Shown: positions 6,696 to 60,891, counted from the first letter of the stretch. The stretch is 64,000 nucleotides of DNA from Marsupella aquatica (GCA_973895155.1 OZ316891.1:27503561-27567560); one strand, 5' to 3'. A program made the numbers and translations. The notes: generated by a model from the sequence alone, not told the origin.

Positions 6696-6707
6696 TGGTA
6701 TCAGAGC
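6696..6707 (+). promoter_or_regulatory. Primer binding site complementary to initiator tRNA-Met 3' end
   Basis: TGGTATCAGAGC begins 2 nt after the 5' LTR; this is the canonical plant Copia PBS. Confidence 0.92.
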
Positions 6708-12346: not shown

Positions 12347-12731
12347 TGTTGGGTATTTACTCTTACGTCTAGGTTAGGTATGACGTGGTTGATACAACAA
12401 CGTGGGTTGGTACAACTACGTGGTTAGGTACAACTACGTGATTAGGTACAACTATGTGGTTAGGTACAACTAAGTTGCACACTATATCATAAGAGGCACG
12501 TGTGCTTTGAGAGGTAGAACCAAGGCTCATTGTTATGGAGCCACTTGAGAGATAGGGAGAGCTTACACTGTGGAGACTCGGTATAGCCGACGGGCTTAGA
12601 GTTCAGTAAAGCTCTCTTGTGTGTTCCTGTGGACGTAGCCTCAAGGAGGTGAACCACGTATCTCTTGTGTCGACTATTGTGCGTTGGATGGTTCATGGGC
12701 TTGCCATTGCGATCATCGTCTATGCTCAACA
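12347..12731 (+). repeat. 3' LTR of Copia element (385 bp)
   Basis: Preceded by the polypurine tract 12336-12345; has five rather than six 18-bp units; followed by TSD GGCCC. Confidence 0.95.
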
Positions 12732-23734: not shown

Positions 23735-23825
23735 GGCCGCCGCTCCACCGCCTTGCTTCAGTACAATTCAATCACTCCAGCTCCTCGTGCTTTGCTCTGC
23801 TCTGCTCCTCCCCCTCCACGAGACG

Positions 23826-29414: not shown

Positions 29415-29722
29415 CCCGGGGTCCTCACTTCTTTTCTTCCGACCCATCACGCGCGAATAAATATAGGGTTTTTTTATTGGGTATAACGGAATACTTTTAA
29501 ATTTGTGTTGAAGAACATTAGGGTTATTTTAATCCAATTTTGAGAATTATAAGAATCATAGGGTTTTTAAAAATCAAATATGGGAATATTCTTGGAATAT
29601 TAACATTAAGTTAGGGGTAAAACAATTCCTATAAAAAACTTTATTGACTTAACTTTTAGGGTGTTTATTCCCCCAAAACTTCGAGCATGATATGGGACAC
29701 CCCTTGGATTGAGGCCCCCGAG
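29415..29722. mobile_element. hAT-type MITE (308 bp)
   Basis: 8-bp TSD GCAGCAGC (29407-29414 and 29723-29730); imperfect TIRs cccggggtcctca / tgaggcccccgag; AT-rich interior. Confidence 0.8.
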
Positions 29723-30299
29723 GCAGCAGCTTCTCGTATTTGTATCTCAATGAAGCAAACGCTTTGCCCTGCCTTGCAACGCTCTTCTATGTGCCAGGTT
29801 CAGGTCTTGCACAACCTGTATTTGTCTTGCTAAGCTTTCCTCTACCTCAGTAATCCTCTCTAACATCTGCTCCTTGCCAACTCCCAATGACCTTATCTTC
29901 CTCAACAAACCCAAATTTTCTACCCTCGACTGAAGATTATCCTTTAATAAAACACTCTTATCAATTTCTAGGCTTTTGATGGCAACATCATGTTCTTTTC
30001 TCTCATGAGTTCTCTCATGCTCTTTTGCAAGGCTTTGGGCATACCCATAGAACCCATTTTTCCCAAGGCAAAAGAAGACCACAAGCTCTTTTAAATTGGT
30101 GAAAGGGGGAGCTAAGTTAGTCCTTGGATCTCTAGGGTATATGCCTCCATCTATCCACAAGTCAAGCTAGATTTGTGCACCCCTCTTCCCTTTTTGTTGA
30201 AAAAGACTTTTTTTGCGTTTGTAAATCAATGTTGAGTCCTCGTTTGATTAGCGGAGCAAATCTGGGATCCACTGAAAAGCAAATTTCATAGGCCTTGCC

Positions 30300-30573
30300 C
30301 TCGGGGGTTTCACTTCCACAAAAATGGCATATCACGTGCAACGAAGGATATGGTCATTTTATTGGTTCTAAGAGAAGACTTAAATTTTTTTGTAGAAAAA
30401 CAATAGGGTCTTTTAAATTCAATTTTGAGACTTATTTAAAGAACATTAGGGTCTTTTTAATCCAATTTTTGGAATATTCCAACCTATTAGGGGTTAATTT
30501 TTATAAAAAATTCTTATATTTTAGGGGATCCGAGGCCTAAAAACGTCGCAGGTGATATAGTGAGACCCCCGAG
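30300..30573. mobile_element. hAT-type MITE (274 bp)
   Basis: 8-bp TSD GCCTTGCC (30292-30299 and 30574-30581); TIRs CTCGGGGGTTTCACT / AGTGAGACCCCCGAG; inverted homolog of 42644-42940. Confidence 0.9.
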
Positions 30574-30982
30574 GCCTTGCCCCATTTGTTGGTGACGTCT
30601 GCCAAGGCCATATTCTGTATAAGAGAGTACAATGAACATATCTTCATGAGCAATCGGGCAAGCTCATACTCACAAAACTCATATATTCAGTTAAAATAAT
30701 CACCGGCTATGTTGATCAAGCCACCCATACATGCACCCTCGACTGAAAATCCTGAGTACGTATGACACTGGCATGGCACATTTGTGCGATACTTGCAAAA
30801 ATCGTTAATAATACAAAACTCATGCCCAGCTTCTGAAATAGGTGGTCAAGAATAGTGTGTACTTCATTAACGTATATTTAATGATAGACAAAGACCATCA
30901 ATGTCTGGGGGCCAGATACATTGGATAAACTACAGCCCTTCACCAATCTCCAAATTAAGCCAGCTAGAATGTACTCTATCAC

Positions 30983-34020: not shown

Positions 34021-35162
34021 TAAAGGCGAAAACATTGCACAGCGAACCCGCCAAGGCTTGTCGATCCTCAGAAATTGCTACCTGGCAGTGCAGACACTGC
34101 TCGCTCTCGGCCAAGGCTCAGCAAAGAATCTTATCCTGGTCCCAACTTGTCCAATCTTCGCATCCACAATTCGTTTGCGCTAGAGTCACTTCCCCATAGC
34201 TGCTGCCGCTGTCGCGAGTGAATTGTAACCTGGAAAATACACTACTCCTCTTGAACTTTGATTGCCAGGAAGGCCTGAAGTCGACGCTAACTCTACTAAC
34301 CACATAACGATGCTTAAATTTTGGAGCAATTTAATCTATTTCTATACTCACAAAGCTCGAAGACTCATTAAGGAGAAATCTGGGCAGGTGCCCTTTACAA
34401 AGGCTTAAGGGCCTTATTTTTTGCCCATTCTGTTTCTAATGAATAGGCTGAAAGTTTTCAGAGACTGAAGACTATTAAATGTATAATCTGTTTTTATCTT
34501 TCCATCTTAAAAAAGTCGCCACACATTCCCCTTGAGATCTTAGACCTCATGATTGTTTGGTAGTGTGAGTTGCCTCCCAAAAGGCATTTCGCAAGGAGTT
34601 TTTGCGTAGTGGGGCTCTAGGCTTGACCATACGCTCCCATCCAACTTTGGGCTCACTCAGCCTCACGTGTCCATCTCACTTCGATATAAATTCCAGAGCC
34701 TTTGGCTTAGTTTCCCATCAACTGTCTCCAGGGATTAGCAGTCAGCAGCAGGCTTCAAAATTTTCACCCTCACTGTCGACTCGCACCCCGTCAATAGGCT
34801 CGAATTGATCCGATCACTCGCGCGTCAGCTTCTGAACGTCCTCACATTTATCGACACTCGATCTTCATTATTTTTGCTGCTGCCTTAGTCTCAAGTGAAG
34901 TGTGTTTCTGGCAGCTGATGACGGTTCCACAAACGCAGTGAACTGCTACGCTAACTTGGCTTTAGTCGAGGTATCGGTAAAGGAAATCGTCAACCGAGAC
35001 ATCGATTTCAGGGTACTCGCTAGCTGTGTATAGAGGAAAGGAGGCGCTGTGATCCGTACAATTCTTTGATTTGGCAAATTAAACTTCTTTCCAAAGTTAC
35101 TCCTTCCATTCAAATCGAAGGTTGACATCTGAATTCCCGATCCCTCCTAGCTAGTCGCAAAA

Positions 35163-36543
35163 ATGGCAACCGCGGCTTCAACTGTAGATGCTGGCAGCAT
35201 GGGGGAAAGTGCTAACTTCAACCTCACCAGAGATGCTCCATCAGAAGGATGTGCGTCGGTGCTCGGCATTGGTACTGCTGTACCCCCCACCGTGCACACG
35301 CAAGACACGTATCCGGAATTCTTCTTCGACATCACCAACAGCAACGACAAACCGGAGCTCAAGAAGACATTCACGCGCATTTGTAAGGGTCTCGATCACC
35401 CAGTAATACAGATTGCTATATTTAACGTACACGGTAGTTGGTTGCATTCTTAGCTGGGATCATCTTCAGAACTGTCATTCAGATGTCCTTTTCTACAAAT
35501 AAGATGATTGAATGTAATTTCTTGTTTTCGAGTCGCGTTGCGCAGGTGAACGTTCCGGAATCAAGAAGAGGCATTTCTACATGACTGAAGAACGTCTGCG
35601 GGCGAACCCCACAATCCCCACATATTTGGAGCCATCTCTGAATATTCGACAAGAGATCGCTACCGCCCAGGTGCCCAAGCTGGCGCAAGAGGCTGTAGTG
35701 AAGGCAATCAAGGAGTGGGGTGGAAAGAAGTCTGAGATCACTCATGTCGTTTTCGCCACGACCAGCGGGGTGAATATGCCGGGAGCAGACCACGCCGTGG
35801 CCAGGCTCCTTGGACTCCGCCCAACTGTGAGACGAGTGATGTTGTACCAAATTGGCTGCCACGGAGGAGCAGCAGTCATGCGCATCGGTAAGGATTTGGC
35901 CGAGAACAACAAGGGAGCTCGTGTGTTGGTGATCGCAACTGAGTTAACTTGCGTCACTTTCAGAGCTCCAAGCGAAACTCACGCTGCCGGCCTAGTTGCA
36001 TCGGCGTTGTTTGGCGATGGCGCTGCAGCCATCATCCTTGGTTCCGATCCCAGGCCCGGGATCGAGAGACCAATCTTCGAGATTAAGTGGGCAGGAGAAA
36101 CCATCATCCCAGAGAGCGACGGTGCCATCGATGGGCAACTTACCGAAGCCGGGCTCATATTCCACCTGTTGAAGGACGTTCCAGGACTGATCTCCAAGAA
36201 CATCGAGAAGTTTCTGGTCGAAGCGAGGAAAGCGGTTGGGTCACCAGAGTGGAACGAGATGTTCTGGGCTGTGCACCCGGGCGGTCCCGCCATCCTCGAC
36301 CAAGTGGAGGCCAAGCTTGGCTTGGACAAGACGAAGTTGGGAGGGAGCCGAGATACTCTCTCGGATTACGGAAACATGTCGAGTGCAACCGTCCTGTTCG
36401 TGCTAGACAGAATCAGACAGCGTTCAATCGAGAAGGGCAGCAAGAACAGCGGGGAGGGCTCGGAGCATGGATTCGTAATTGGATTTGGTCCGGGGCTGAC
36501 ATTGGAGGTCTTGACTCTGAAGAGTCTTCCATTGGCTGTGTAG
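35163..36543 (+). CDS. CHS: Type III polyketide synthase (chalcone/stilbenecarboxylate synthase family), copy 1, divergent
   Basis: Exons 35163-35382 and 35546-36543 (405 aa); the GT-AG intron splits the Cys codon at the conserved CHS position. Catalytic Cys (QIGCHGG), His (WAVHPGG), Asn (YGNMSS) and GFGPG are present. The symbol is family-level; product specificity is unknown. Confidence 0.93.
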
Positions 36544-39190
36544 TTAAATACTTGATACGTTGCAATGTACAATTCAACAGTCAGCTGACCATTCCGGCCA
36601 TGTAATCTGGTTTGTTGAAATTGCTCTCGGGGTCTCTGTGATGTCGTTAGCTGACCGTTCTAACGCGGCATTGACTTATGTGTGATTAGCCTGACCGAAT
36701 GGGCAGGCTGGACCTCATTTCGCCCAGCTCATGCATTGTGGTAATGCGTCCCTCGTCAATGTCTGTGTTTCAGCTGAAGGATCTGGATTCCAACATGAAG
36801 GATGTCAAGGGCCATTGGCCTGGCTCTAATTAAGGCATATTTATCTTGCGTAAACGGATATATCTTGCGGACATTAATATGTATCCGGGATGGGTGAAAC
36901 CAGTTCGAAGAAACCTGCTCTCACGGTGGCCGGATTCAAGCCATGCCTAGTTAGCTCCACTTTGCAGTCAATATATGCTAGTCATTCGCGACCTGGATTC
37001 TTGGCAGCCTCGGCCTAAATTAGTCGTGGTCGATAGAGAGTATGCTTTTTAGAAACTCAGATCACAGTAGTCTCTCCGTTTACATTTTCGGCGATTAGGG
37101 GCTGTAGAATACATATACCCGAGTCGATCAGGATGTGGTTGTATCCATGCACACCTCTGGCAATAAATACATCATGACGTTCCATACTACCGACTATCAC
37201 TACGTACACATGCACTTGCTCTCAATCGGCAAACTCACTGATCAATGTCACTCCGTACTTTTCAACTCAAAAAACTGCTATATCTTTCAATACGGAATGT
37301 CATCGAAAATTTATGGATCTTAGAGGCACTCGACATACTCGCCCAACATTGTACATTATATTATATTATTTATTAATATAATTTGGCCTATATTTAACGT
37401 GTACATTTAAGGACCAAAAAGTGTATATTTGGGTTTCTTAAAGTGTATATTTGGGGACATGAAAGTATACATTTCAATACTGATTTGTGAACAAAAGAAA
37501 ATATACTTTTAATTAATAGGTTGATATATCTGTGTTGTAATACGATAGATTTTGTCCATTTGGGAAGGCTTTGGTAGGGGGCGTCTTCGTTGTAAAGTCG
37601 GAGAAAATGTGAATACAACGTGCATATTGTATGCAAGACAGACATCATTCTATGTTGAACAGGTTTTGGTTTTGTCCACCATAGCAGGCCTTTCTGCCTA
37701 TATGTAAGGCAGGGGAGTCCTTACTTTATTTAAGTGTGATCTTTGAATACAATGTCCAGTCGAGTGTGTATCCAAGGTAAAAATGATTTTGTCCATTTGT
37801 AGGTTGTGGAATCATGAATACCATATTTGCAGTGTGAGTAATGAATACATTGTGTGGCATGTATACCATCCAATCATGGTTTGTGCATTCTTGTCTACTC
37901 TGACCATTTTTCATGTTGTACAGTCTTCAAAGAGAGCAAGAAATATAATATCTAGCCCTATATATTTTGTCACCAATGTGTAAATTAATTCACAAAGAAT
38001 TATAGATACTATAATTCACAAAGAATAGTAGGATAGAGATCATACTTATAAAAACATTTCAGCACAAAAAAGCCCAAGTACCCTTGATAATGTGTGAACA
38101 AAATGACCTAACTCCAAATAGATTACGAAATAATCTCCAAATTTACAATGCATTTCTTCTATCTAAGGGGCTTAACATGAGTCATATCTCTAAACAAACT
38201 GCTCCTTACAATGTGTATTTGAGCACGTGCCCCTGTCTCCTTTACTATCTACCCCATTATCACGGTTGCAAGTCCCTTTATCTTCAAGGAGCTTAAACTT
38301 GGTGGTGTTGCTCCTAATGGCTATAATCTCCCGCAAAAAGTGTCTGGATTTTCTCTATATAGACCAATGGTGGACCTAGTCACCTAGCGCCCTCACCAAT
38401 CCCAACACTCACGCCTAAGTGCCCCTGGTGCCCGAACGCCTCCACGGAATACCTCGAGCAAGCTCCCTAGTGCGCCTTGCACCGCTAGCGGCCCCTCCCA
38501 TACGAAGCCGCACTTGCTCACCTACACGACCGCTACTCAACGGTCCTCACTATCTGCACAAGCAACCAAGCACCTCGGTAAGTAACCCTTCAGGATCTAG
38601 AACTCGCCAAGTCTAGCATCCTAACTCAAGCTCAACAAACGTTGGTAAATAGGTCAGCGATAGGTCCTCCCGATGCCATAAGCCGGAACCAGAACCCACG
38701 CCCACTGTTCGTCCAGAACAGTTCCTTCCTTGGGCGCGGCCCGGGTTCCCCCTCGTACCTATCCATCACCAAATGACTGCCCTGACCCCAGGACATGCTC
38801 ATGGCCCAAATAGCGTAGCTTGTCCTAAAGCTTGTCCCGACACGCCAGGACCAGAATGGCCCCGCCTCTAGCAACCAACTCCCGATTTGCCTCACTAATG
38901 GTCTAGGGACCGAGCACTCTTGGAACTCAAACTCCACACCTACTTGGCCTTGCCTCCCCAATGCTAGCTCCCTTGGGAGACTCAACGCGACATGGCTGTT
39001 GTTCGGTAGGATTTGGCAAGCGGGCGAGTTAACACCCGCAAGCCTCAAGATCCCATGGTTCCTCCAGACCCAGCTTATCTCAAGAGGGCGTAGCCCTACT
39101 TGAGAGCTTTCCAACACACCCAAGAAGTCCTCCAACGGACTTCCCGTTGGGAAGATATCGTTGTTTCTGTTTGACGGTTTCCCTTAGTGT

Positions 39191-41120
39191 TGTCACACCA
39201 TTCTAGGTAGTGTTAGAGCGTATCGTACTACCTAGATCCGTATGTTTGGTATGTGTGCTATATGAGGCGATAAGGTTCCGTCAGGTTTGTGTGAGAGGGT
39301 ACTTCTCACTTGTGAGGCATTGAAAGGTCATCTTTCAATGTTGAGCCTTGGAGAGAGAGGAGCTTGAGTGTGGCTATGGTGGCTATGAGCTCCGCTTGTG
39401 AAACATGGATTCCTTGAGTAGTGCAAGGTGCATTGGCTTGACATACATGTGTGATCGGATCGGTGCGAGATCGATGTGGTATTGTGGACCGGGATCGTTA
39501 TGCCGATTGTATTGAGATTACATTGAAAGATCGCTTGAACTCTGCTACTGTACGGCCAGGGCTTCGATTGGAGGTTGATGTGTATTGGCGACGGTTTGTG
39601 GTAGTTCGAATCGATCGTGTTGTGTTGGAGAGGATTTGTGGTAGCTCGGATCTTATTGTTGACATTGTGTTGGAAGATTTGTTCTGCTTGGGAGCTGTTG
39701 GTGAAGCTTTCGACAATTCCCGAAGGGCTGTGGGATGTGTTTATCGAGAAGGGCTGATCGGCAGCAGAGGGATCTATGCTCGTGCTTCGCCAATGTTTGT
39801 AGATCTGTTGGACAGGTTCCGGACGATGTAGTCGACCTGGCGCTTTCGCGATTAGCATCCAAGTTGCTGTTACAGGTAGCAATCGGATTTGACAGGGCCA
39901 GCTATCAAGTAGGTGCTGCTGTTTTGATATGGTTCTATATGAAGGAAACGGAGATCAAACTTTGAATGTTGCATTTTGTGTCACTATTGTTTCCATTCGA
40001 TCATGTGTATGCTGCCATCGCCGAGCTGCGATTTTGCCTGAAGGGAACCGGGAGGTGGCAGCCAGCGAAGTCAATCGATGTTTGTGAGGCTGTCCGTGAT
40101 TGCGATCTGCAATTTCGTGAAGGGAAACTGAGGGATTGAGACCCAAATGCGGGCCCAAATGTTGTGAGATTTCAATTGACGCTCGTTGCAGATCTGTGAA
40201 GACAGTATGTCGATGCGGGAGACGGACTGTACTCCGCTCCGCACCTGCCATGAATTTTTGCAAAGGGAAACATGGGGGCGGAACTCGGAATGTTGCAAAA
40301 TCTGAACGTACGTGGTCCTGGCGTAGCGAAGCGTTGCGGGCGTGAAGGGCTCACTCTTTGGCTCATCTCGGCGTTTAGAGGCTTGCGAGGCAACTCATGG
40401 TTACTCGGGACGAGGGGCATGAGGGCGGGCCAGCAAGCCAGCTGGTACGTGAGGAGTAGTTGCAAGTTGCTGATTTTGGAGCAGCCAATTTGGTGCATAA
40501 CTACAAGTGAGAGGTCACCCCTCCCAAAGCTATTCCTTCCCGCTTAACTATGTGGTTCTTAAGTGCTCTTGTGTACACACACTCATTTCCACTTTGATGT
40601 TAATGGAATGAGCACTTAGGCATTTTATACACATTCTAGTTTGTTTAGATTCATTTGTCATTTTGGGCCAAATCATAAGCTCTCTTTAGGTTTTTTATGC
40701 TTCTGAATCCATCTAGATGCATGGATTGAACCAATTGTGCATGGATTCTTAGCTACGACATTGAACATTGAGAGGCCTATTATGAAGGCCCCACATTGAA
40801 CATTATGAACATTGTTTGATTGATGTATGATCACTATTGATGTGGAGAGCTATTGTGGATTTCTTCTTGTTGATTGGATCCTCTCCACAATGCTTCTTGT
40901 TTATGCGCCATGTTAGTTTGGCGTGGGCGCTTGATTCTATAGGAGTGATCCAGGTTTGCAACCGGACATTCTAGTTGTGCTACGTATTTCTCTCCTGGTG
41001 ATGTGGAGTGATGCCCAACACACCATGGTGAGTGCTTGTGTTGCTGACAGAGACAAATTGCCCTTAGGGTTAGCATATAGATTAGGTTAGGTTGGTCACC
41101 ACGGATTCTTCTGGCGCTAC
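39191..41120 (+). mobile_element. Candidate 5' LTR/leader of the DNMT-carrying retroelement
   Basis: Abrupt boundary at TGTCACACC (39191), a typical Ty3/gypsy LTR start, directly upstream of gag; TGGCGCTACTGGG near 41112 is PBS-like. No second LTR is present to confirm this. Confidence 0.35.
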
Positions 41121-42643
41121 TGGGTTACCCGATGGACGACGAATCAGTTTCACTCAGAGTGGGGCGCAGTTTTGGCCAGTGAGATTGGTAGCAGTCAGCA
41201 GCACTGATTCAGACAGTAATTTGACGAGAACTCTGTGAGCAGTTATCCTTGTCTTCAGGTGATTGCACCTTTGTTGTGGGATATGGAAGAAATGTACGGG
41301 GCTACAAAGGGCCCACGACGATCCTCTGGTGCAGTTGGCACGATTGATCTAGATGACTTTATCCAGGAGTTCTATATGTGGTACGATATGCAGACATTGC
41401 GTAACGCCACGTTGTTTACCCCTTTCATGGCATGGAAGGGATTATTTCAGCATTTGGAGGGGCCACCCATGGATGACTACCATGAGTTTTGGAAGGCTCA
41501 TTTGGTTGAAATTGAGGCATGGAGGCAGCATTGGTCACCTAATTACGTGTCCATCACCTATGGCACTAGTGCAGCTGCCCAACACATTGCCATAGCTGCT
41601 GCTTCTTCTAGCAGCTCTAGCCAGAGTGGCACACCATCCACCAGTAGCACTCCAGCAGCATCCACCGCTACCCGTGCCAGTGTGATTATGACAGGGACTA
41701 GAGCTGCACCAACATTTAACCCTGCGGTGGAATTCTTTGAGGTACTGAAGTAGAACTATCAGGGTGTGAGAACTGATAAGTTGAAGGGTCTCCAGGAGTT
41801 TCAGCGCAAGACTAGAGAGAGTCTACGGGAGGCATACACTTGTATGCGCAGATTGATCACTGTCACCAAGGGAGTGATAGAGGCTCAAGCAGTCCAGTTT
41901 TGGTATGCAATTCTGGATAGAGAGTTGGGACGCAGAGTGAGAGATGTCACTCTGCTTAGTTAGGGATGCAGATCCCACATTAGCAGTTATTTTTACCCTT
42001 TCTGAGCGCATTGATCTCAATATGGTGAATGAGAAGGTGATGACTTGTGGATTTTCCAAGGAAGCACCAAAGGCTACATCTACATCTACACCACAGCCTA
42101 TTGCACGGAAGAGCCAGAGGGAGAAGCCTACTGCACGAGAGTCTATCAGCCAAAGACCTGTGCCCTCTTATGCTGGACAACAGTCAAGATGTTGGACCTG
42201 TGGTGGGGATCATACACAGAGATATTGCCCAGATCATAGAGGATTAGGGGGAGCATCAGCGCCTGATCAGCTACAGTGTGATCATTGTGGAGCCCCTGGA
42301 CACGCCAAGGATAGGTGTTTCTCACTCCACCCTGAGTTACGAAGGGGAGGATCCCGTACACATGATCAGGGAAGAGGAGGAGGAGTTAGAGGTGGTGGAC
42401 GTGGTCGTGGCATGCCACATGCAGGGAGATAGGGAGGTGACGCTGCCTCTGCTATAACCATAGATCCAAAGGATGCTAAGATTGCTCAATTGGAGCAACA
42501 GCTAGCTGCCATGGCTAGTTCCCAGGTGAGACCTACTTCTGGTGATGGGGCATCTACATCCTATGGACCTTTCACATCCCATCGTCCTTCCACATCTTAT
42601 GGAGCTGATGGAGACCTTGCCACCATGGGATTCATGTGTGGCC

Positions 42644-42940
42644 CTCGGGGGTCTCACTATATGGGGACCTCCCCATCGCCTGCGACGTTTTTAGGCCTCG
42701 GACCCCCTAAAATGTAAGAAAAAAATATTATTTTTTAACCCCTATAAAGTTGGAATATTCTTGGAATATTCTAAAATTTGGATGAAAAAGACCCTTATAT
42801 TCTTATAAGTCTCAAAATTGAATTTAAAAGACCCTATTGTTCTTCTACAAAAATTCTTAAGTCTTCCCTTAGAACCAATAAAATGACCCTATCCTTCGTC
42901 GCACGTGATATGCCATTTTTGTGGAAGTGAGACCCCCGAG
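42644..42940. mobile_element. hAT-type MITE (297 bp) inserted in the retroelement gag-PR linker
   Basis: Perfect 15-bp TIRs CTCGGGGGTCTCACT / AGTGAGACCCCCGAG; 8-bp TSD GTGTGGCC (42636-42643 and 42941-42948). Excision restores the frame MGFMCG-LAHIDASAALTRG. Confidence 0.93.
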
Positions 42941-43528
42941 GTGTGGCCTTGCACATATTGATGCATCAGCAGCTTTGACACGTGGGGCAGTCAAAGCTCT
43001 TGAGCCTCGAGGAGTAGTAGTGGAGCTAGATCCATAGAGGGGGGATGCACGTCGGTAGACAAAGCTTCCTCAATCTTTTACATTGTCAGAGACAGTTCAG
43101 ACTGCCTCTATGAACCCGGTTCGGACAAACCTTGGTGTGGGTAAGTTGGCAGAATCAGGTAGTGATGCAGTAGGGATGACAGGTACTCTGTTGGGGGCGG
43201 CTACTGCCATAATACGCACCCCATTATTTTCATCAACAGGCATGCTAAACTTGGGAGTTGGTCCTACAGAAGTGTTCAGATTGGCAGCTACACTCTGTGA
43301 GGACACTCCAGTGCTTGCTTCCCATGCAGAAGCAGCTTCCAGTGTTGAAGCAATGAAGACCATACCACCTACTGCTACTAGTGAGACATGGCATGCAGCA
43401 GCAGCAAGGTTGGTGGATTTACCAGCACGCTTTGCATTTGAATGAGAGGACTAGATTTAAACCTAGTGTTATGTCATTGGATAATCAGAGTGGTATCTTC
43501 CGATTAGTTGGGCCTTCTGGGGCAGTAT

Positions 43529-46500
43529 TGTGATGCCTTGCCAGGATCACGAAGTAATAACTTAGCCTAAAAAAATGGCTAAAATATGATAGATAGAGAG
43601 TATAAGGTAACAATAAAGGCCGATGCCAATTTCTAAGTGGAGATGATAAAGGACAGGATCCAACGGTTGAGATCCAGCGGGATTAGAGTTATGACCTAAT
43701 CCATGCTTGATCACAAGGACCCCTAAGTGGCGGCTTTGGAGTAAGGTGACCAATTCTCTGCCATTTCGCATTCTCGTGTACACGGTTTTGACATTGAGGA
43801 GCGATTGTCAGTCGAGTGCATGTGGTGGATTGGCATTCGGTGGAATGAACACGGTGAATCAGGCAGGGAAGTTTTGGGGCTATTTGCTTGAAGAAGCAAG
43901 GCAGCTGATACCTATGTATGAAGACGTTGAGCCGGAGCGCGCAGCCAGAGAACAAGCGGAGCTTGCGCGATTGTGGGGAATTCACAAGACGGGATACGTA
44001 GATACGGAGGAGGTGTTGGACAAGTTCTCGTGGACACCCACCAGTGCGGAGCTTGACGAATTGCTGATTCGAGAGAATAAGGTCGTGGGGATTAGGGAGG
44101 CAATCAAGAACGCAGGGCAGCCACTTTGGGAGTTGAAGGGTCACACTGCGAAGTGGACGAAAGAAGCTATTCTCGGGGAGTATTCAGGCGCTGAAGAGAT
44201 GAAGCGCAAGGGAGGTTCGGCATCCGCCACTCCAGCAAAGCGAACTAGGTCGGAGAGACCAATCAAGATGGAAGCCGGGCCAGTTAGAAATTGGGCTAAG
44301 GAGTATGGAGACATGTGTGGACTCTTAGCCTTAGAAATCTTCGGTAACGAGTTGGAATCCGGGCCATTTCTTAGAAAAGATGTGGCTGATCAAACGAGAC
44401 TGGAGGAGGCAATGACGTTAGAGCAGTTCAAGAAGGAAGAGGTAATCGCTCGGCTTCGCTCCATGGAAGCCGAAGTTGCTAAGACAAAGTCTGGACAACC
44501 AACTCAGCAGGATCTCTTGGCCAAGCAGCAGGAATTAGAATTGGCCAACAACCAATTGGAAAACTACCAATTGGATAACCAACAGATCAAGGAAAAATTG
44601 ACAAAGGTAGAGCTGGAGTTAGCCAATTCAAAAGCAGAAGTAGAGGGTCTAAATCGCCAAGTCGAGAGGCTCAAAAAGACGGCTAAGGATCAGGCCACCC
44701 AGAGCGAGAAGGCCTTGGCAGAAGCCCAAAGGAAGTATGACAAGTTACTCGACCGGTTGGATACCATGCGTGAGAAGCATGATGACGCCATGTGCAATGC
44801 GGCCAATGATCACCTAAACCGGGTTCAACAAATACACAAGGAGCTACAGGAGGAGCTAACCAGGACAAAGCAGGCATGGACGGACGAGGTCACAAAGCTG
44901 GAAGGCATCAACGACTCCTTGAAAGCAGTCGTAGATAAGCAAGAGCTGGAGATCGTGCAGATCTTGAATGAGGAGCTGAAGATGGTCAGGTCCGAGATAC
45001 AACGGCTTAACAATGAAGTTGAAGACGTATCTCAAGAATTGGAGGAGGCCCAAGGATAAGATACTCGGGTTGCAGAAGCGTGCCGACAATCAAACGGAGA
45101 AATTGAAGAAGTATGCCAAAGCGGGATATGGGTCACCAACTGAAAGGCTTCCCGTCAGTAGTATGGTAGGCAGAAATAAAGTGAAGCCGAGTCCAAAGCC
45201 GAGCTCACTATTGTCAAGTGTGACTGGAGAGCAAAGCCATGCAGTTGGTGGCAGATTTGGCAAAGACGTTCATGGGGCCAGGCGATAATAAGGTTAAGCC
45301 CCTTAAAGCCACTTCGGAGGAAGTTGAGAGCATGGCCGCTCACATTTGTGGTACTGTGGCCCTGAAGGCAGCTGTGGTAGAGATAAGTACTGCGGATCAA
45401 CTTGGAGCTGCGGTAACAGGTTTAGACGATGATATTGTTTCTATGGACGCCCAGAACGTGAAGCCGTGGGTTATCGAGACCAAGCAAATCGGGGTGCAGG
45501 CTTGGATTGAGGAAGTTAAGGCAAAAGCTCTCCAAGCCATTTCTCAGGAGGATGCCAATGCAGCAGCCGATGCCGGGGCCGACAAACCAGAACCCAAAAT
45601 TGAGGAAGCCGAAGGGGTCAAGCCGGAGCCGATGGCAGAAGAAGGTGCAGAGTCGGAAGATTCGGACTTACCCCCGGGCATCTGACAATTAAGGAGGGCC
45701 AGTCATCGGTTGGAAGGAGGACGTGGCGGCAGGAGAAGGGCTTGGGCCAGAAGGGCGCGGCCGTTGTAGGATGGGACAGGGCAAGTAGCGCCCTGTCGGG
45801 ATAGGTAGTATTAGATGCTCGGTTCACACAGGGTTCCGGGCTAGTCAAGTTTTTTAGGTGATAGTTGTTTAGTAGGATCATCGCGGGGAAGGCCGTGAGT
45901 TGTGGTTAGGATTTCCGCCTTTCTCTTGAATGCGCTGCAAGGATAAAAACCTGGGAAGCGTGGCTCGGGGGCTTTTTCTTAGTCAAGGCTTTAGTGTAAA
46001 TCTGTATTGTTGTGTACAGGAAGCTCTCGGCTAAATCTAGACCGCAGGGTATCAATAAACCACCAGTTCCATTGGATTTCTAGCAATTGTTTGAATTGAG
46101 TTGGCCTCGTTGCATAGTTCGCAGATTCTTACCATCCAAGGAAGTTGAGTGTTATGATATCTGTTGCTTGATCGATTAAAGTCAGATAGGGTGAACTGTT
46201 GAGAAAAATACAATTGCATTGTCTTGATTGGAGACTGCCCAATCAAACTCTGAGAGAAAAGTGAGGATTGAGAGTGTTTAGTCGGTGAAGTGTGGGTTGA
46301 GTCAGTCTGAAAAAGACCTTCAGCCGGCTTAAGAAATTAAGCCGTAGGGATACATTCCGGGGGCGGAATACAAATATACCTGAAGAAGTTAAAGAGGAAT
46401 TAGGTGTCTCAGTTGTGTACAATTCACAAGCCCAGTGAAAGAATCGGTCCAGTAAGTGTGGATCAAAGGAGAGGATCGCGTTTCCAAACCAAATAGCTGC

Positions 46501-46588
46501 TAGACGGCAAGAGGACGGACATAAACGAGTGGTTTATGATCGACTAAGGGTAGTTCTTGGGGTTAGAGGTCTTGGAAAACGTGCCACA
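43529..46588. mobile_element. 3060-bp solo-LTR-like insertion (TG..CA, 5-bp TSD) carrying a coiled-coil ORF
   Basis: Begins TGTGAT and ends GCCACA; TSD AGTAT (43524-43528 and 46589-46593). Excision restores the host frame GPSGAV-Y-QPERVLLDTGAQ. Confidence 0.85.
43707..45685 (+). pseudogene. Coiled-coil protein of unknown function inside the 3-kb insertion (frameshifted, ~600 aa originally)
   Basis: 450-aa ORF 43707-45059 with a long E/K/L/Q heptad region, continuing by frameshift (KDKILGLQKRADNQTEKLKKYAK) into ORF 45239-45685, which has an acidic tail. Confidence 0.65.
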
Positions 46589-46593
46589 AGTAT

Positions 46594-46930
46594 ACCAGCC
46601 AGAGAGAGTGTTACTGGATACTGGTGCTCAGCCCTTGATGTTGGTTAAGTTTGCCATACGTGGATTGGGATTGCGTCCAGAGGATTTGGAGGATTGTCCC
46701 TTTCCCATTCAGACTTCATTGGGGGGACCTACACCTACACAACACATTACCAGGAGACCTCTTGATTTGAGGATTCAGGAAGGTCATACCACAGATAGCT
46801 CACAGATATAGGCGCAAGTTATTCTGACTAAGGTAGATTCATATGATCAATGTGTTGGTGGGATGTATAGTGCTCTACCCCATGGGATTTATTCTTGATT
46901 TTTGGGATGAATCAGTGTCATATAGACAGT
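46594..46930 (+). pseudogene. Retropepsin-like aspartic protease of the DNMT retroelement
   Basis: RVLLDTGAQPLML active-site motif, flap-like PIQTSLGG, and C-terminal VLVG..LYPMGFILDF; stop at 46809-46811 and a frameshift near 46845. Confidence 0.8.
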
Positions 46931-47303
46931 CAGGAGATGCTCAATTGAGCAAATTTCCAGTGAGATTTAGTGGACCTATGGGAGGCCCTAAATCCACACC
47001 ATTATCTTTGGCAGCATTCAGTGATGTAATTGCTAGACCTGATGATTTGATTGAGGGCAATGCGCATGCAATAGATGTTCCACCATTGGAGGAGTCTAAT
47101 GAGGAGCATATCATGCGAGGATTCCTATTGGCAGTGTTGTGCCACCAGTGTGGGGCACTGCATAGGCCTTGCCACAGGCAACAACACGATTGGTACATGA
47201 GGCATGGCGTCATGCTTTTACACCATAGTCAGGAGCAGAGCAGTCTCTTGCAGATGGACCTATGACTCTTTCACCATTGGATACCACTCCTATTGCTTGG
47301 TAG

Positions 47304-48026
47304 TATCCATCAGAGGGTATTTGTTTGTTGGATCTTTTTGGTGGGATTAGCACTGGATTGGCTGTTGTTCTTCAGGCAGGAATTCCTGTGCATGGTTATT
47401 TGTATGTGAAGACAGATGAGACAGCACGGAGGGTCTCATTGCGACATGTGGCTATGTTGGTGGATAGATATCCACAGTTGCTGCCAGTGGATGCTGTTCG
47501 TGGTTATCAGCATGCACTACCTGCTGATATTTCATTGCTGGGGGTGAATCATCTGCATCATGTTGGCCCCATTGATTTGGTGATTGCTGGTTGGCCATGT
47601 CAGGGCCAATCTAGAGTTGGCGTTGGGCATGGACTTCATGATCCACGCTCTGCATTATTTTGGGAGATGTTACGGGTGCTGCGTCATCTCCAGCTACATC
47701 AGACACAGTCTCCAGCATACATTTTGGAGAATGTGCCATTATTAGGTGATGATCGTAGTCGGATTGTTGCCAGTGTTCACCAAGTGAGGTCTTGGATTGG
47801 ACCTACTGTGTTATTGGATGTTGTACGTGTGGGTTCTCGTGCACATCAACCACGCTTGTGGTGGACTAATTTGATCCCATGTGAGGTGCTGAAGCGCGCA
47901 TTTGACAACATTCCACGCTCACTAGCCTTAGTGGTGGATGATATTTTGGATCCAGGGCGTCGTGCACAGGGTGTGACCCGACCTGATAGACCTCCATTGG
48001 CAGTGGTCAATGCAGTTGGGCACCCA
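47304..48026 (+). pseudogene. C5 cytosine DNA methyltransferase domain, DNMT3/DRM-like, retroelement-borne, 3'-truncated
   Basis: Motif I LDLFGGISTG, motif IV DLVIAGWPCQG (catalytic Cys intact), GLHDPRSALF, motif VI YILENV, motif VIII RAHQPRLWWTN (compare DNMT3 AHRARYFWGN). Intronless; motifs IX and X are missing. Confidence 0.9.
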
Positions 48027-48504
48027 CATTGTTGGTTTCATCATATAGATTTCCAAATCCACTCCATACCACCCAAAAATCCTTCAGTAGCACATTTGCC
48101 TTTCTGTTTGTAATGTCATGCCTTTGAATACCTGTGTCAAAGGCTTCCACCTGTGTGAATACAAACTTAAAATTCAACCGCTCCTCAGCAGTGAACATCA
48201 TGTTCAATATTTTCACTGTTCGTTGTACCCCAGCACATGTCCAAATCGCAATGTCAAATTGGTCAAAAACCAACTTTAGAAACTCGTGGAGCCCTAGCCT
48301 TTCTGTATACATGCGACTAATTTCATTTTTTCTATTGCAATGTACTCCACTTGGGGTCACAACATTTCTGGATTTGCCCTTGCTTTGGAATTCAACCGAA
48401 TCCCAAAGTATTTGCTTAAGATCCAAAATCAGCAATTTGTGCTTGATGGAACAAGGTCTTGGTTTTGCAAGTGCAACAAATATCAATCTTAGAGAAAAAA
48501 CCAC
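48027..48504 (-). pseudogene. FCP1/NIF-like HAD phosphatase domain fragment
   Basis: KLLILDLKQIL (degenerate DxD), R.GLHEFL..VFDQFDIAIWT, LLKDF..VW and YDETN; cut off just before the expected C-terminal DD motif. Confidence 0.65.
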
Positions 48505-49029
48505 ATTAGAGGCCTAAATACTCTAAACTTGATGTGACTGAGAGTGCACGGTATATAAACTGTTTTATGTCCACTAAGACATGGGAACGCGATCCAGGGT
48601 TTGGTGAGAACACTCAACATTGGCAATATGCAAATTCTGCAATGTCTGGTTTTAAATCTGGAATGAAAGAAGAAAACATGGCGGGCAGAGGTTTGAAGAT
48701 TCCTTGAAATGTTCTACAAACTGTCCAAAGTTATCTCCAAAGGATGGACAAGTAGACTTAGTTGTTACTAGCAAACTCAAGGTATAATTAGATAGTTACT
48801 AGTTTTATGTAACTAAGATAATCACTCATTCTAACATAGTAAGTTACGTACTAGTTATTTACTATTCTAATAGTTTTATTGTGAGACCATGCCATTGAGT
48901 GTTAGTTATACTATCTCCTCATTTTCTAAAGGTTTGATCATTATGAATATGAATGTTTATTTTTTTTGTATAAATAAAAATATTTTTATTCATTCCTTCC
49001 TTTTAAATGATTATAATAAGAGTTTCTAG

Positions 49030-49510
49030 GAAAATGTACACTTTTTAGACCAAATGTACACTTTGTTGCACTAAAAGCTACACTAAAAGCTTCACTTAAA
49101 TTTTAGACCAAATGCACTTAAATGTACACTTTTAAAGCCAAATGTATGCATTTTTCACTCAAATGTACACTTTTTAGGCCAACTGTATTCAAATGACACT
49201 TTTAAAGCCAAATATACCTATTTTGATGTTCAAATATACACTTTTCATTGCCAAAATGTACACTTTCAGACCAATTGTACACTTTTAGACCAATTGTACA
49301 CTTTTCTATCCCCAAATATACACTTTTTCAAGCCCAAAAGTACACTTTTCATTGCCTAATATAAATAAATCAAATAATAATACACTTTTAATGAATAGGC
49401 TGATATATATGATCTGTCATGTATACACTTTCCACGTTGTATTCAGATTTCACATTTAGAAAAAAAAAGTTATCCCTCCAACTTTATGAAGACGCCCCCC
49501 CCCCCCCCCT
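49030..49510. repeat. AT-rich subterminal-type repeat array (aaatgtacacttt units), inverted homolog of 37356-37650
   Basis: Many ~20-bp ccaaatgtacactttt units versus aaaagtgtatatttggg at 37417-37457; cacgttgtattca..gaagacgccccc (49432-49500) is the reverse complement of 37577-37625. Confidence 0.65.
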
Positions 49511-51316
49511 AAAGCTTGCCATTTTACACTTTGCACATTGTATTCATATTTCATCCAACATTGTGGTCCTTGTATACAGTGATGTCAATGTATACATTCA
49601 TGATCTAATTGTGAGGCTCTCAGCCTCCCATCCCTTGACATGAGGCAACCCCGCCCCGTGCTTGGAAAGGGTTTTAATTACAACAGCAGGGTGCTTCTAT
49701 CAACCACTAGTGGAGGGCAATGGGAGAAACCTTGTCACCAACTATATATGCCAAATAATGATAGATATCATGTGTACGTAGCTTTCTTCAAAGGGTCCAA
49801 GGATAGATTAGTTCGAGCATGGCTGGGTGACCCTGGTAATTACACTGAGCCTTCTTCCCCAGCAATGCGGGCCCTGCACCAGTGTTGTGTTTGTCCTTTC
49901 CATCACCAAGAATGCAAATCCCACTTGGTCTAGCTTCAACCCCAGCTTTCAAACCCCAAACCCAATACCATTGTGTAAGTTGGGCAGTTGAATGGTAGGG
50001 CTGGATGTTGGAGAGATTAACCAAAGGTTGGAGGAAGATATGCAAAATTTTGCCATTGGAGGATTAACCCGTTCCACGTATGTCATAAGGGGTACACAAA
50101 GGAGGTGGGTAAGCAAGATATCACAAGGTTACCCGAATTGAAGGAATCCAACTCCCACCAAAGTAACCTACGGAGTAGGCTCGGGTGTAGGTTTTACATT
50201 TTCAGGGCTGCCCAAAGCAAACTTCACAATCATCGATTATATTATTTATATACGCCTTTACATCTACAAACAGTGCAGCCATGCAAAATCTACGCCGCGT
50301 ACTCTTCGAAAATGCAGGCACAGGGAACAACCACGCATCCATCATTGTCTGGCTGCAGACAATCATTTGATGCTCGAAGAAACACTACGCTCACATATTT
50401 CATGACAACTTTAGGACTTTAAATAATTCAGACATGGAAGCTAAGCCAAAGCGCTGAAGGAATGAATGTTGATATGATACACATAAAAGAGACATCCCAC
50501 AGAGGATCACCGAGTTGCACACGTCCGGAAGATCCGGACCTGGGTTTTCCCTTCGCCTCCCTAGATTTCCGGGAAAAAAGCTCGCAGCACTGCATACAAA
50601 AATACCATACGGGTCTGAACTCTACGTCTCTAGAGTGCTGCGAGAGCAGAAAGTTTGCAGAATTTGCTACAGTGTCAAGTCCATGCCACTCAACAACTCA
50701 AAAGGAAAGTGAGATGGCTAGCGGCACCAAACTAATGCACAGTCCAGACTGTAAACACGTCAGTTTCCTGCCTCCCAAAAGGCATTTTGCAAGGAGTTTT
50801 TGCGTCGTGGGGCTCTAAGCTCCTGACCAGCCGTGCCCCCGCACCATACGCTCCCACCCAACTTTGGGCTCACTCAGCCTCACGTGTCCATCTCACATCG
50901 ATATAAATTCCAGAGCCTTTGGCTTCGTTTCCCATCAACTGTCTCCAGGATTAGCAGTGCCTAGTCTGCTTAATTCCCAGCAGCAGGCTTCAAAATTTTC
51001 ACCCCTGTCGACTCGCACCCCGTCAATAGGCTCGAATTGATCCGATCACTCGCGCGTCAGCTTCTGAACGTCCTCACATTTATCGACACTCTCTTCATTA
51101 TTTTTGCTGCTGCCTCAGTCTCAAGTGAAGTGTGTTTCTGGCAGCTGATGACGGTTCCACAAACGCAGTGAACTGCTACGCTAACTTGGCTTTAGTCGAG
51201 GTATCGGAAAAGGAAACCGTCAACCGAGACATCGATTTCAGGGTACTTGCTAGCTGTGTACAGAGGAAAGGAGGCGCTAACATCTGAATTTCCGATCCCT
51301 CCTAGCTAGTCGCAAA

Positions 51317-52693
51317 ATGGCACCAGCGGCTTCAACTGTAGATGCTAGCAGCATGGGGGAAAGCGCTAACTTCAACCTCACCAGAGATGCTCCATCAGAA
51401 GGATGTGCGTCGGTGCTCGGCATTGGTACTGCTGTACCCCCAACCGTGCACACGCAAGACACGTATCCGGAATTCTTCTTCGACATCACCAACAGCAACG
51501 ACAAACCGGAGCTCAAGAAGAAATTCACGCGCATTTGTAAGGGTCTCGATCACCCAGTAATACAGATTGCTATATTTAACGTACACGGTAGTTGGTTGCA
51601 TTCTTAGCTGGGATCATCTTCAGAACTGTCATTCAGATGTCCTTTTCTACAAATAAGCTGAATCTAATTTCTTGGTTTCGAGTTGTGTTGCGCAGGTGAA
51701 CGATCCGGAATCAAGAAGAGGCATTTCTACATGACTGAAGAACGTCTGCGGGCGAACCCCACAATCCCCACATATTTGGAGCCATCGCTGAATATTCGAC
51801 AAGAGATCGCTATCGCCCAGGTGCCCAAGCTGGCGCAAGAGGCTGCAGTGAAGGCAATCAAGGAGTGGGGTGGAAAGAAGTCTGAGATCACTCATGTCGT
51901 TTTCGCCACGACCAGCGGGGTGAATATGCCGGGAGCAGACCACGCCGTGGCCAGGCTCCTTGGACTCCGCCCAACTGTGAGACGAGTGATGTTGTACCAA
52001 ATTGGCTGCTACGGAGGTGCAGCAGTCATGCGCATCGGTAAGGATTTGGCTGAGAACAACAAGGGAGCTCGTGTGTTGGTGATCGCAAGTGAGGTAACTT
52101 GCGTCACTTTCAGGGCTCCAAGCGAAACTCACGTTGACGGCCTGGTTGGATCGGCGTTGTTTGGCGACGGCGCTGCAGCTATCATCCTTGGTTCCGATCC
52201 CAGGCCCGGGATCGAGAGACCAATCTTCGAGATTAAGTGGGCAGGAGAAACCATCATCCCAGAGAGCGACGGTGCCATCGATGGGCATCTTACCGAAGCC
52301 GGGCTCATGTTCCACCTGTTGAAGGACGTTCCAGGACTGATCTCCAAGAACATCGAGAAGTTTCTGGTCGAAGCGAGGAAAGCGGTTGGGTCACCAGAGT
52401 GGAACGAGATGTTCTGGGCTGTGCACCCGGGCGGTCCCGCCATCCTCGACCAAGTGGAGGCCAAGCTTGGCTTGGACAAGACGAAGATGGGAGGGAGCCG
52501 AGATACTCTCTCGGATTACGGTAACATGTCGAGTGCAACCGTCCTGTTCGTGCTAGACAGAATCAGACAGCGTTCAATCGAGAAGGGCAGCAAGAACAGC
52601 GGGGAGGGCTCGGAGCATGGATTCGTAATTGGATTTGGTCCGGGGCTGACATTGGAGGTCTTGACTCTGAAGAGTCTTCCATTGGCTGTGTAG
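51317..52693 (+). CDS. CHS: Type III polyketide synthase (CHS/STCS family), copy 2
   Basis: Exons 51317-51536 and 51696-52693 (405 aa); Cys-His-Asn triad (GCYGG, HPGG, GNMSS) and GFGPG intact. Confidence 0.95.
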
Positions 52694-58284: not shown

Positions 58285-59514
58285 TAACCTAGGGAGTAGG
58301 CTAGGGTGTAGGTTTTACATGTTCAGGGCTGCCCAAAGCAAACTTCACAATCATCGATTATATTATTTATATACGCCTTTACATCTACAAACAGTGCAGC
58401 CATGCAAAATCTACGCCGCGTACTCTTCGAAAATGCAGGCACAGGGAACAACCACGCATCCATCATTGTCTGGCCGCAGACAATCACTTGATGCTCGAAG
58501 AAACCCTACCCTCAGATATTTCACGACAACTTTAGGACTTTAAATAATTCAGACATGGAAGCTAAGCCAAAGCGCTGAAGGAATGGATGTTGATACAAAT
58601 AAAAGAGACATCCCACAGAGGATCACCGAGTGGCACACGTCCGGAAGATCCGGACCTGGGTTTTTCCTTCGCCTCCCTAGATTTCCGGGAAAAAAGCTCG
58701 CAGCGTTTTGAGCACTGCATACAAAAATACCATCCGGATCTGAACTCTACGTCTCTAGAGTGCTGCGAGAGCAGAAAGTTTGCAGAATTTGCTATAGTGT
58801 CAAGTCCATGCCACTCAACAACTCAAAAGGAAAGTGAGATGGCTAGCGGCACCAAACTAATGCACAGTCCAGACTGTAAACACGTCAGTTTCCTGCCTCC
58901 CAAAAGGCATTTTGCAAGGAGTTTTTGCGTCGTGGGGCTCTAAGCTCCTGACCAGCCGTGCCCCCGCACCATACGCTCCCACCCAACTTTGGGCTCACTC
59001 AGCCTCACGTGTCCATCTCACTTCGATATAAATTCCAGAGCCTTTGGCTTCATTTCCCATCAACTGTCTCCAGGATTAGCAGTGCCTAGTCTGCTTAATT
59101 CCCAGCAGCAGGCTTCAAAATTTTCACCCTGTCGACTCGCACCCCGTCAATAGGCTCGAATTGATCCGATCACTCGCGCGTCAGCTTCTGAACGTCGTCA
59201 CATTTATCAACTCTCGATCTTCATTATTCTTGCTGCTGCCTTAGTCTCATGTGAAGTGTGTTTCTGGCAGCTGATGACGGTTCCACAAACGCAGTGAGCT
59301 GCTACGCTAACTTGGCTTTAGTCGAGGTATCGGTAAAGGGAATCGTTAACCGAGACATCGATTTCAGGGTACTTGCTAGCTGTGTACAGAGGAAAGGAGG
59401 CGCTGTGATTCGTACAATTCTTTGATTTGGCAAAACTTCTTTCCAAAGTTACTCCTTCCATTCAAATCGAAGGTTGACATCTGAATTCCCGATCCCTCCT
59501 AGCTAGTGGCAAAA
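58285..59514 (+). repeat. Duplicated 5' flank/promoter shared by PKS copies 2 and 3 (matches 50164-51316)
   Basis: Near-identical ~1.2 kb starting taaccta.ggagtaggct.gggtgtagg; only the proximal ~0.6 kb is shared with copy 1 (from ~34571). It includes a CACGTG and a TATA-like gatataaat. Confidence 0.9.
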
Positions 59515-60891
59515 ATGGCACCAGCGGCTTCAACTGTAGATGCTGGCAGCATGGGGGAAAGTGCTAACTTCAACCTCACCAGAGATGCTCCATCAGAAGG
59601 ATGTGCGTCGGTGCTCGGCATTGGTACTGCTGTACCCCCAACCGTGCACACGCAAGACACGTATCCGGAATTCTTCTTCGACATCACCAACAGCAACGAC
59701 AAACCGGAGCTCAAGAAGAAATTCACGCGCATTTGTAAGGGTCTCGATCATCCAGTAATACAGATTGCTATGTTTAACGTACACGGTAGTTGGTTGCATT
59801 CTTAGCTGGGATCATCTTCAGAACTGTCATTCAGATGTCCTTTTCTACAAATAAGCTGAATCTAATTTCTTGGTTTCGAGTTGTGTTGCGCAGGTGAACG
59901 ATCCGGAATCAAGAAGAGGCATTTCTACATGACTGAAGAACGTCTGCGGGCGAACCCCACAATCCCCACATATTTGGAGCCATCTCTGAATATTCGACAA
60001 GAGATCGCTATCGCCCAGGTGCCCAAGCTGGCGCAAGAGGCTGCAGTGAAGGCCATCAAGGAGTGGGGTGGAAAGAAGTCTGAGATCACTCATGTCGTTT
60101 TCGCCACCACCAGCGGGGTGAATATGCCGGGAGCAGACCACGCCGTGGCCAGGCTCCTTGGACTCCGCCCAACTGTGAGACGAGTGATGTTGTACCAAAT
60201 TGGCTGCTACGGGGGAGCAGCAGTCATGCGCATCGGTAAGGATTTGGCCGAGAACAACAAGGGAGCTCGTGTGTTGGTGATCGCAAGTGAGGTAACTTGC
60301 GTCACTTTCAGGGCTCCAAGCGAAACTCACGTTGACGGCCTGGTTGGATCGGCGTTGTTCGGCGACGGCGCTGCAGCTATCATCCTTGGTTCCGATCCCA
60401 GGCCTGGGATCGAGAGACCAATCTTCGAGATTAAGTGGGCAGGAGAAACCATCATCCCAGAGAGCGACGGTGCCATCGATGGGCATCTTACCGAAGCCGG
60501 GCTCATGTTCCACCTGTTGAAGGACGTTCCGGGACTGATCTCCAAGAACATCGAGAAGTTTCTGGTCGAAGCGAGGAAAGCGGTTGGGTCACCAGAGTGG
60601 AACGAGATGTTCTGGGCTGTGCACCCGGGCGGTCCCGCCATCCTCGACCAAGTGGAGGCCAAGCTTGGCTTGGACAAGACGAAGATGGGAGGGAGCCGCG
60701 ATACTCTTTCCGATTACGGAAACATGTCGAGTGCAACTGTGCTCTTCGTGCTCGACAGAATCAGACAGCGTTCAATCGAGAAGGGCAGCAAGAACAGCGG
60801 GGAGGGCTCGGAGCATGGATTCGTAATTGGATTTGGTCCGGGGCTGACATTGGAGGTCTTGACTCTGAAGAGTCTTCCATTGGCTGTGTAG
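59515..60891 (+). CDS. CHS: Type III polyketide synthase (CHS/STCS family), copy 3
   Basis: Exons 59515-59734 and 59894-60891 (405 aa); exon-2 protein reads identical to copy 2; triad intact. Confidence 0.95.

Follow-up and report, generated by a model that had tools for sequence, protein, structure and literature searches.

The question raised by this locus is whether a cytosine methyltransferase lying directly behind the protease of a retroelement belongs to that element and, if so, what the element does with it. The locus is found in a stretch of 64,000 nucleotides from Marsupella aquatica (GCA_973895155.1, OZ316891.1:27503561-27567560), called the window below, from whose first letter all positions are counted. 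The copy that it contains is dead, twice interrupted and truncated at its 3' side, and is supported as a relic of a multi-copy bryophyte family of Ty3/gypsy type that encodes its own DNMT3-type enzyme. In relatives the protein order is gag, protease (PR), DNMT, reverse transcriptase (RT), RNase H (RH), integrase (INT) and PHD finger. The reading preferred here, with a probability of roughly two in three, is that the window contains a dead copy of this family and that the methyltransferase likely serves to methylate new cDNA of the element itself.

The coding remnant is on the plus strand. It starts with the N-terminal, capsid-like part of gag (41283..41960), which has a premature stop and matches residues 1-230 of the Marchantia proteins P0005 and P0007 with 60-63% identity in tblastn, and continues with a nucleocapsid region recognized by homology to relatives (41905..42642), where two zinc knuckles are located at 42190-42228 (CX2CX3HX4C) and 42277-42318. 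A conserved Gag-protease linker and the start of the protease region follow (42942..43527; 65% and 86% to P0320), with stops and one frame change, then the aspartic protease with LLDTGAQ at 46611 (46590..46859; 72% to P0320), and its C-terminal part together with the PR-DNMT linker, assigned by homology to relatives and holding two frame changes (46849..47315). The DNMT3-type C5 cytosine methyltransferase occupies 47316..48032 (PF00145, E 3e-10); its motifs I, IV, VI and VIII lie at 47328, 47589, 47721 and 47841, motif VIII being one position off the family pattern, and it is cut before motifs IX-X. Gag, the two knuckles, the protease and the methyltransferase with its four motifs had been named in an original prediction made from the DNA alone, and their order is collinear with that of uninterrupted relatives. 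The Pfam scan proposed there bore this out in part: DNA_methylase is recognized, but Asp_protease_2 is weak on the window copy (E 0.022, as against 1e-5 to 3e-6 in relatives) and zf-CCHC is absent from the scan of its gag piece. On relative L004, zf-CCHC is matched at E 1e-7.

The family is defined by copy number and by linkage. In contigs of four public runs, from which copy number was taken, the region is matched by 22,904, 10,261, 12,913 and 624 contigs. The DNMT frame of the window has 56 matches, 24 of them named (18 Marchantia, 2 Calypogeia, 2 Sphagnum and 2 Closterium), and a metagenome scan found 100 relatives, from which 80 loci were kept; many of these represent one genomic copy from overlapping samples, near-duplicates having been removed only in the census of 27 copies described below. 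The protease precedes the DNMT in 67 of the 80 loci, with 9 more cut upstream; RT, RH or INT follows it in 41 of the 47 with room, and DNMT, RT, RH, INT and PHD stand in that order in 15 of the 80. The zinc-knuckle and protease domains are supported by Pfam in relatives (zf-CCHC and Asp_protease), RVT_1, RT_RNaseH, Integrase_H2C2 and rve are all matched in L004, and the domain order recurs in named Marchantia, Calypogeia, Sphagnum and Closterium proteins. The predicted relic of a bryophyte retrotransposon with its own enzyme is supported by multi-copy PR-DNMT-RT linkage, and the single-copy fragment that would have spoken against it is not what the search for other loci returned. The enzyme does follow the protease, as had been noticed, but it precedes the RT rather than replacing it.

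Two trees, both built without host DNMT3 and without the Klebsormidium DNMT, place the copy more closely. The DNMT tree, which has 54 sequences, puts the window as sister to P0001, inside a clade with Calypogeia, Sphagnum and Marchantia (support 81; 100 with P0022, P0030 and L035). The RT tree (118 sequences, with one unrelated gypsy element as root and deep nodes poorly supported) has Coleochaete, represented by the transcript P0060, in the main bryophyte clade, and a second bryophyte lineage (L073, L074) stands separate. The search with the RT also brings in Riccia, Klebsormidium, Tetraselmis and Haematococcus. Three Klebsormidium nitens RTs (P0089, P0108, P0130), which may or may not come from DNMT-bearing elements, are among its matches at 40-45% identity, with deep-node support under 0.4-0.8; no K. 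nitens DNMT is among the matches listed in the DNMT protein searches. Two lineage members, P0346 and P0441, are filed under the bacterial names Synechococcales and Minisyncoccia, which is probably bin contamination.

By its motifs and its modelled fold, the family enzyme is of DNMT3 type and unpermuted. A profile built from 24 family sequences scores 79 bits on DNMT3A, 64-70 on DNMT3B, 38 on 4ONJ (which we take to be a DRM), 29 on HhaI and 22 on DRM2. For the AlphaFold model of relative P0003 (pLDDT 78), all the Foldseek matches listed are DNMT3A/B/C, the best with a template modelling (TM) score of 0.82 by target at 21% identity, and DNMT2 scores far below DNMT3. The motifs run I-IV-VI-VIII-IX-X. 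A DRM methyltransferase, as half of the earlier label DNMT3/DRM-like had it, is rejected by this order, in which the DRM permutation is absent, and by the 22 bits of DRM2 against 79 for DNMT3A. Identity is 63-84% to most bryophyte retrotransposon DNMTs, and C187, Q188 and E230 are invariant across the 24 aligned sequences. Comparison of the window with 7 loci gives ratios of nonsynonymous to synonymous substitution (dN/dS) of 0.16-0.20, which are rough since dS is near saturation; by these ratios the DNMT is under purifying selection. The best phage methyltransferases reach 63-65.5 bits on the family profile, as compared with the above scores of DNMT3A and DNMT3B, and a phage origin of the enzyme is conceivable; the viral contigs searched yielded only 2 weak, unrelated phage-type methyltransferases.

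An indication of how the enzyme is produced comes from a stop codon behind it. The alignment census of the Sphagnum-type family shows, some 100 residues past motif X, a codon position with a stop in 37 of 38 rows, while the next commonest stop site reaches 8 of 42. After removal of near-duplicates (27 copies kept of the 33 covering the site, out of 43 with a match), the stop is present in 26 of 27 distinct copies, as TAG in 16 and TAA in 10, and the hexamer CAACCC behind it is invariant in 27 of 27, a constancy shared by 10 of 495 hexamers in the region. The distant relative L004, synonymous-saturated with respect to the Sphagnum-type copies, reads TAG CAA CCA there, an exact CARYYA motif, and has no ATG at that place; L035 reads TAG TAG CCA. 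The sequence UAG-CAR-YYA is described, in the available text of PMC3542737, as the type I readthrough motif of plant viruses. The frame continues in phase with coding-like conservation on both sides of the stop. Of 20 chosen DNMT proteins without RT, 19 end 71-189 residues past motif X, and standalone RT-RH-INT-PHD proteins of about 1030-1150 residues occur. Two Marchantia gene models with different frames at the site would be compatible with the same context. Because of this conserved in-frame stop, the DNMT of the main bryophyte clade would be produced together with Gag, not together with the RT. Probably, then, Gag-PR-DNMT is the bulk product of the ribosomes, and RT-RH-INT-PHD results from low-rate readthrough of a leaky UAG-CAA-CC(A/C).

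From there the proposed cycle becomes more conditional. The particle would pack many DNMT molecules along with the RNA, and these would put 5-methylcytosine, probably at CG, on the cDNA ahead of its insertion by the DDE integrase, a sequence of events that we favour by a small degree only. Methylation of cDNA before integration is the mechanism proposed for algal elements as well. A new copy would arrive pre-marked, which may lower the cost to the host or hide the copy from surveillance. Self-methylation by the family is inferred from its sequences and by analogy; in the available text of PMC5890265, dinoflagellate retrotransposon DNMT3s methylated CG in yeast. In the window, the observed-to-expected CpG ratio of the element is 0.32, compared with 0.51 for a copia element (Fisher p 0.004), 0.75 for the 3-kb insert and 0.83-0.88 for genes, and no CHG loss is seen; the nearly open L004 has 0.28. 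This depletion is only suggestive of self-methylation.

Several points weigh against this account and have to be set beside its rivals. The window copy, placed in the main clade by the tree, ends before the stop region, and the stop step rests on relatives; the second bryophyte lineage (L073, L074), Closterium and several other proteins have the DNMT fused to the RT with no stop; and the RNA stem 3' of the stop is not significant (z-scores -1.6 to 0.05, two-sided change in 7 of 29 pairs). CpG loss is not family-wide, the Sphagnum-type copies (0.53-0.59) being close to an unrelated gypsy element (0.51) and L035 reaching 0.78, and methylation by the host can cause such a loss too. The Klebsormidium DNMT produced no methylation in yeast, a result that its authors call inconclusive in the available text of PMC5890265, and the dN/dS ratios are rough, as stated. 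As for the stop itself, CAACCC of the main family is one base off CARYYA and an ATG lies two codons behind the stop, which makes reinitiation possible. This leads to an alternative concerning that step alone, namely that splicing, or reinitiation at an AUG close by, gets around the stop. Predicted introns that join DNMT to RT in the Marchantia gene models P0008 and P0011 would fit it, but L004 keeps TAG CAA CCA without any ATG, the conserved frame runs in phase over the stop, and TAG and TAA are exchanged while the following six bases stay constant; bypass by these routes is less likely than readthrough.

The other alternatives concern the enzyme. It could be imagined that the DNMT domain is kept in the particle for binding or for RNA methylation rather than for methylating cDNA. 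The inactivity of the Klebsormidium enzyme on yeast DNA, a position beside Gag that suits a structural role, and the many relatives with WEC instead of WPC at motif IV (60 versus 42 among the best 150 of 631 matches) lend themselves to such a role; against it, the catalytic Cys and the Glu of ENV are invariant in the 24-sequence alignment, and the nearest folds are those of the DNA-specific DNMT3, with DNMT2 far lower, which makes this rather improbable. No better placed is an enzyme whose main targets lie in trans, in host chromatin or in competing elements. Production in large amounts would fit such a role, the stop placement predicting Gag-level amounts of DNMT in the main clade, as would the near-complete Gag-PR-DNMT frame kept in some Marchantia gene models (P0005, P0007); yet the K. 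nitens methylome is plant-like although DNMT elements are present, and the window element is CpG-poorer than the adjoining elements. A mere chance neighbourhood, or a retrocopy of a host DNMT3/DRM within a gypsy relic, could appeal only to trees built without host DNMT3. Linkage of PR and DNMT at multiple loci and in four named genera refutes it, and practically no weight is left to it by the unpermuted motifs and by an identity that is 21% to DNMT3A but 63-84% to most DNMTs of bryophyte retrotransposons.

A second domain order is found among more distant relatives. When 1.84 billion representatives were searched with a profile, 631 matched at 1e-30; among the best 150 of these, 32 have the order RT-RH-DNMT-INT-PHD and more are pieces of it. 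A second search found that order in 73 of 96 examined, including named Monoraphidium and Haematococcus proteins. Chlorophyte gypsy examples with the DNMT between RNase H and integrase are P0430, P0268, P0438, P0042 and P0047, many with WEC at motif IV, and where sampled such members form a DNMT clade of their own (support 96 in the DNMT tree). Since PR-DNMT-RT and RT-RH-DNMT-INT are both found, the enzyme has two polyprotein positions in green plants. A description of the chlorophyte elements was not found in the literature searched. Tentatively, and at less than even odds, one may speculate about a Viridiplantae-wide lineage of integrase-encoding split-repeat elements that has had one DNMT3-type enzyme since before land plants, as PR-DNMT-RT in streptophytes and RH-DNMT-INT in chlorophytes; in bryophytes the enzyme would lie upstream of a readthrough stop and load the particles with methyltransferase, and integration would be pre-methylated and PHD-guided in chromatin.

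The ends of the element are known from relatives. L042 and L070, from two lineages, show repeat A, coding region, purine tract, repeat B, two bases, A and B again, starting with TGTCA and ending with ACA. The 4-bp target duplications are exact in L042, L070 and L026 and agree in 3 of 4 bases in L019; the purine tract precedes the first B, and L024, L032 and L065 have B-A-B 3' ends. The relatives do not have two complete identical long terminal repeats (LTRs), their repeats being split in this manner, and no TGG primer site is recognized by eye after repeat A of L042. Assignment to DIRS or Ngaro elements was rejected, since the relatives have an rve integrase and 4-bp duplications instead of a tyrosine recombinase without target duplication; gag, PR, RT, RH and DDE integrase, TG..CA ends, a polypurine tract and a short duplication make them Ty3/gypsy. 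In split-repeat elements the B-A junction serves as template for the ends, and it would do so here. The PHD finger at the C-terminus of the integrase is closest to those of CHD4, PHF12, KMT2C, DPF3, KDM5 and PHF21A, several of which read unmethylated H3K4; by analogy it may read histone H3 tails and steer integration.

In the window family homology stops at 48032, and at the breakpoint 48032..48033 an unrelated repeat takes over; 13 contigs continue there with sequence foreign to the window. RT, RH, INT, PHD finger and 3' repeats are all lacking, tblastn with 56 relatives (some with RT, RH or INT) giving no match outside 41000-48200. Directly at the break lies a multi-copy frame for a NIF/FCP1-like phosphatase (48010-48513, minus strand, E 1e-5). 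On the 5' side a candidate repeat A (TGTCA..TGACA, plus strand, 39191..39664) is suggested by contig depth, high up to about 39667 and near none beyond, and by a weak local match to repeat A of L042, equalled by 1 of 200 shuffles and the best of 6 comparisons; a blast of the relatives' terminal repeats against the window gave no match for this end.

The copy has also been host to two other elements, both correctly recognized in the original prediction. One is a miniature inverted-repeat transposable element (MITE) of 297 bp (42644..42940) with 15-bp terminal inverted repeats and an 8-bp target duplication, presumably hAT-like judging by the length of the latter; the other is a solo-LTR-like insert of another repeat family, 3060 bp on the plus strand (43529..46588), with TG..CA ends and a 5-bp target duplication. 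They are later insertions, because contigs omit exactly 305 and 3065 bases at the two sites, each in 4 of 4 public runs. Restoration of the frame at both junctions also stands, the uninterrupted relatives P0320 and P0321 aligning over them with zero residues lost, but the one run described there is not a single frame: the frame shifts four times (near 41.95, 43.44, 46.85 and 47.13 kb) and is broken by about eight stops, which together with the loss of motifs IX-X bear out the verdict of a dead copy. The insert has an open frame of 454 codons (43695-45059), predicted to form a long coiled coil, for which Pfam offers weak coiled-coil-type matches only and no family name, and a second frame at 45224-45685. 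More pieces of the MITE family, 73-81% alike, are found at 26983-27478, 29446-29626 and 30299-30574.

Around the element, inverted arrays of short A/T-rich repeats at 37356-37760 and 49027-49600, about 11.7 kb apart, enclose it and look like a DNA transposon hosting the nested retroelement; similarity to the second of the chalcone-synthase duplicates ends at 37355. Three such chalcone-synthase-type genes, each with two coding parts (35151-36543, 51281-52693 and 59503-60891), are recent segmental duplicates 95-97% alike. The chalcone synthase beside the element has its best match in 6DX7, from Physcomitrium (561 bits, next 533), which taken by itself would suggest a bryophyte host, likely a moss. 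The window furthermore contains a Ty1/copia element (6290-12731) with 404-bp LTRs 94% alike and gag, protease, integrase and RT frames with in-frame stops; what is probably a single host gene (14758-16902), made up of a 496-codon frame that Pfam does not match and, behind it, a frame for a CCCH zinc finger; and an ARPC2 (p34-Arc) frame on the minus strand, full-length and without introns (22790-23767, E 2e-57), which could be either a retrocopy or a gene that is intronless by nature.

Until now, DNMT-bearing retrotransposons have counted as rare acquisitions by algae, with no known purpose. That liverworts and mosses have them too, including the model Marchantia polymorpha with 18 gene models among the 56 matches, provides a tractable host, and if the Viridiplantae-wide lineage is real, the many Marchantia copies would make the gain from transposon self-methylation testable in a model plant. 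The conserved stop predicts DNMT at Gag stoichiometry. Element copies may inflate the numbers of DNMT3 genes counted in genomes of bryophytes and green algae. No report of such an element in a land plant was found in the searchable literature, a scope outside which lie subscription journals, figures and transposable-element libraries, where a prior mention may exist. In the available text of PMC12344493, DNMT elements are placed in "streptophytes and dinoflagellates" with reference to de Mendoza et al. 2018 (PMC5890265), and neither Marchantia nor Sphagnum is entered in the supplementary table of PMC12344493; in the available text of PMC5890265, KnitGypsy-Dnmt3 is treated as an acquisition of the K. 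nitens lineage, and the 96-genome table has no row for either genus.

The kind of element is, to judge from its repeat layout and DNMT, already known from Klebsormidium, which qualifies the isolation that it first appeared to have; what is added here is the conserved stop, the purifying selection on this DNMT and the chlorophyte RH-DNMT-INT order. As far as the available text of PMC5890265 goes, KnitGypsy-Dnmt3 has in common with the present family the domain set of a Gypsy element, a DNMT3-related domain that is free of introns, unpermuted and under purifying selection, and DIRS-like split repeats on a gypsy body, here combined with a DDE integrase. In the DIRS layout of its peer-review file, A1 and A2 stand around the reading frames and two B copies flank A2. 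It differs in its algal host and in having the DNMT in the reading frame of the RT, whereas a stop separates the two in the main bryophyte clade, although not in the second lineage; a PHD finger and a 4-bp duplication are not mentioned in that text. SymbioDIRS-Dnmt3 of Symbiodinium, from the same source, is similar as a retrotransposon with a DNMT3, A-coding-B-A-B repeats and two coexisting domain orders, and differs by its demonstrated de novo CG methylation, its tyrosine recombinase in place of a DDE integrase and its unrelated host. REM1 of Chlamydomonas reinhardtii, compared through passages of the citing papers PMC2774666 and PMC8557442, is likewise a Ty3/gypsy element of the green lineage, and PHD fingers are described there as a common accessory domain of C. 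reinhardtii elements; its truncated integrase lies in reverse frame, however, and those passages mention no DNMT. The host DNMT3/DRM enzymes have the DNMT3 fold and motifs in common with the family enzyme, which is intronless, lacks PWWP, ADD or any other host companion domain, and shows about 21% identity to DNMT3A and no DRM permutation. In the leaky gag-pol stops of some LTR elements, as given in the available text of PMC3441728, the stop lies between gag and protease, whereas that of the present family comes after protease and DNMT, and its readthrough is predicted. A parallel to this stop is the type I readthrough of tobamoviruses (available text of PMC3542737), where an in-frame UAG with CAA CCA or CAA CCC likewise stands ahead of the polymerase.

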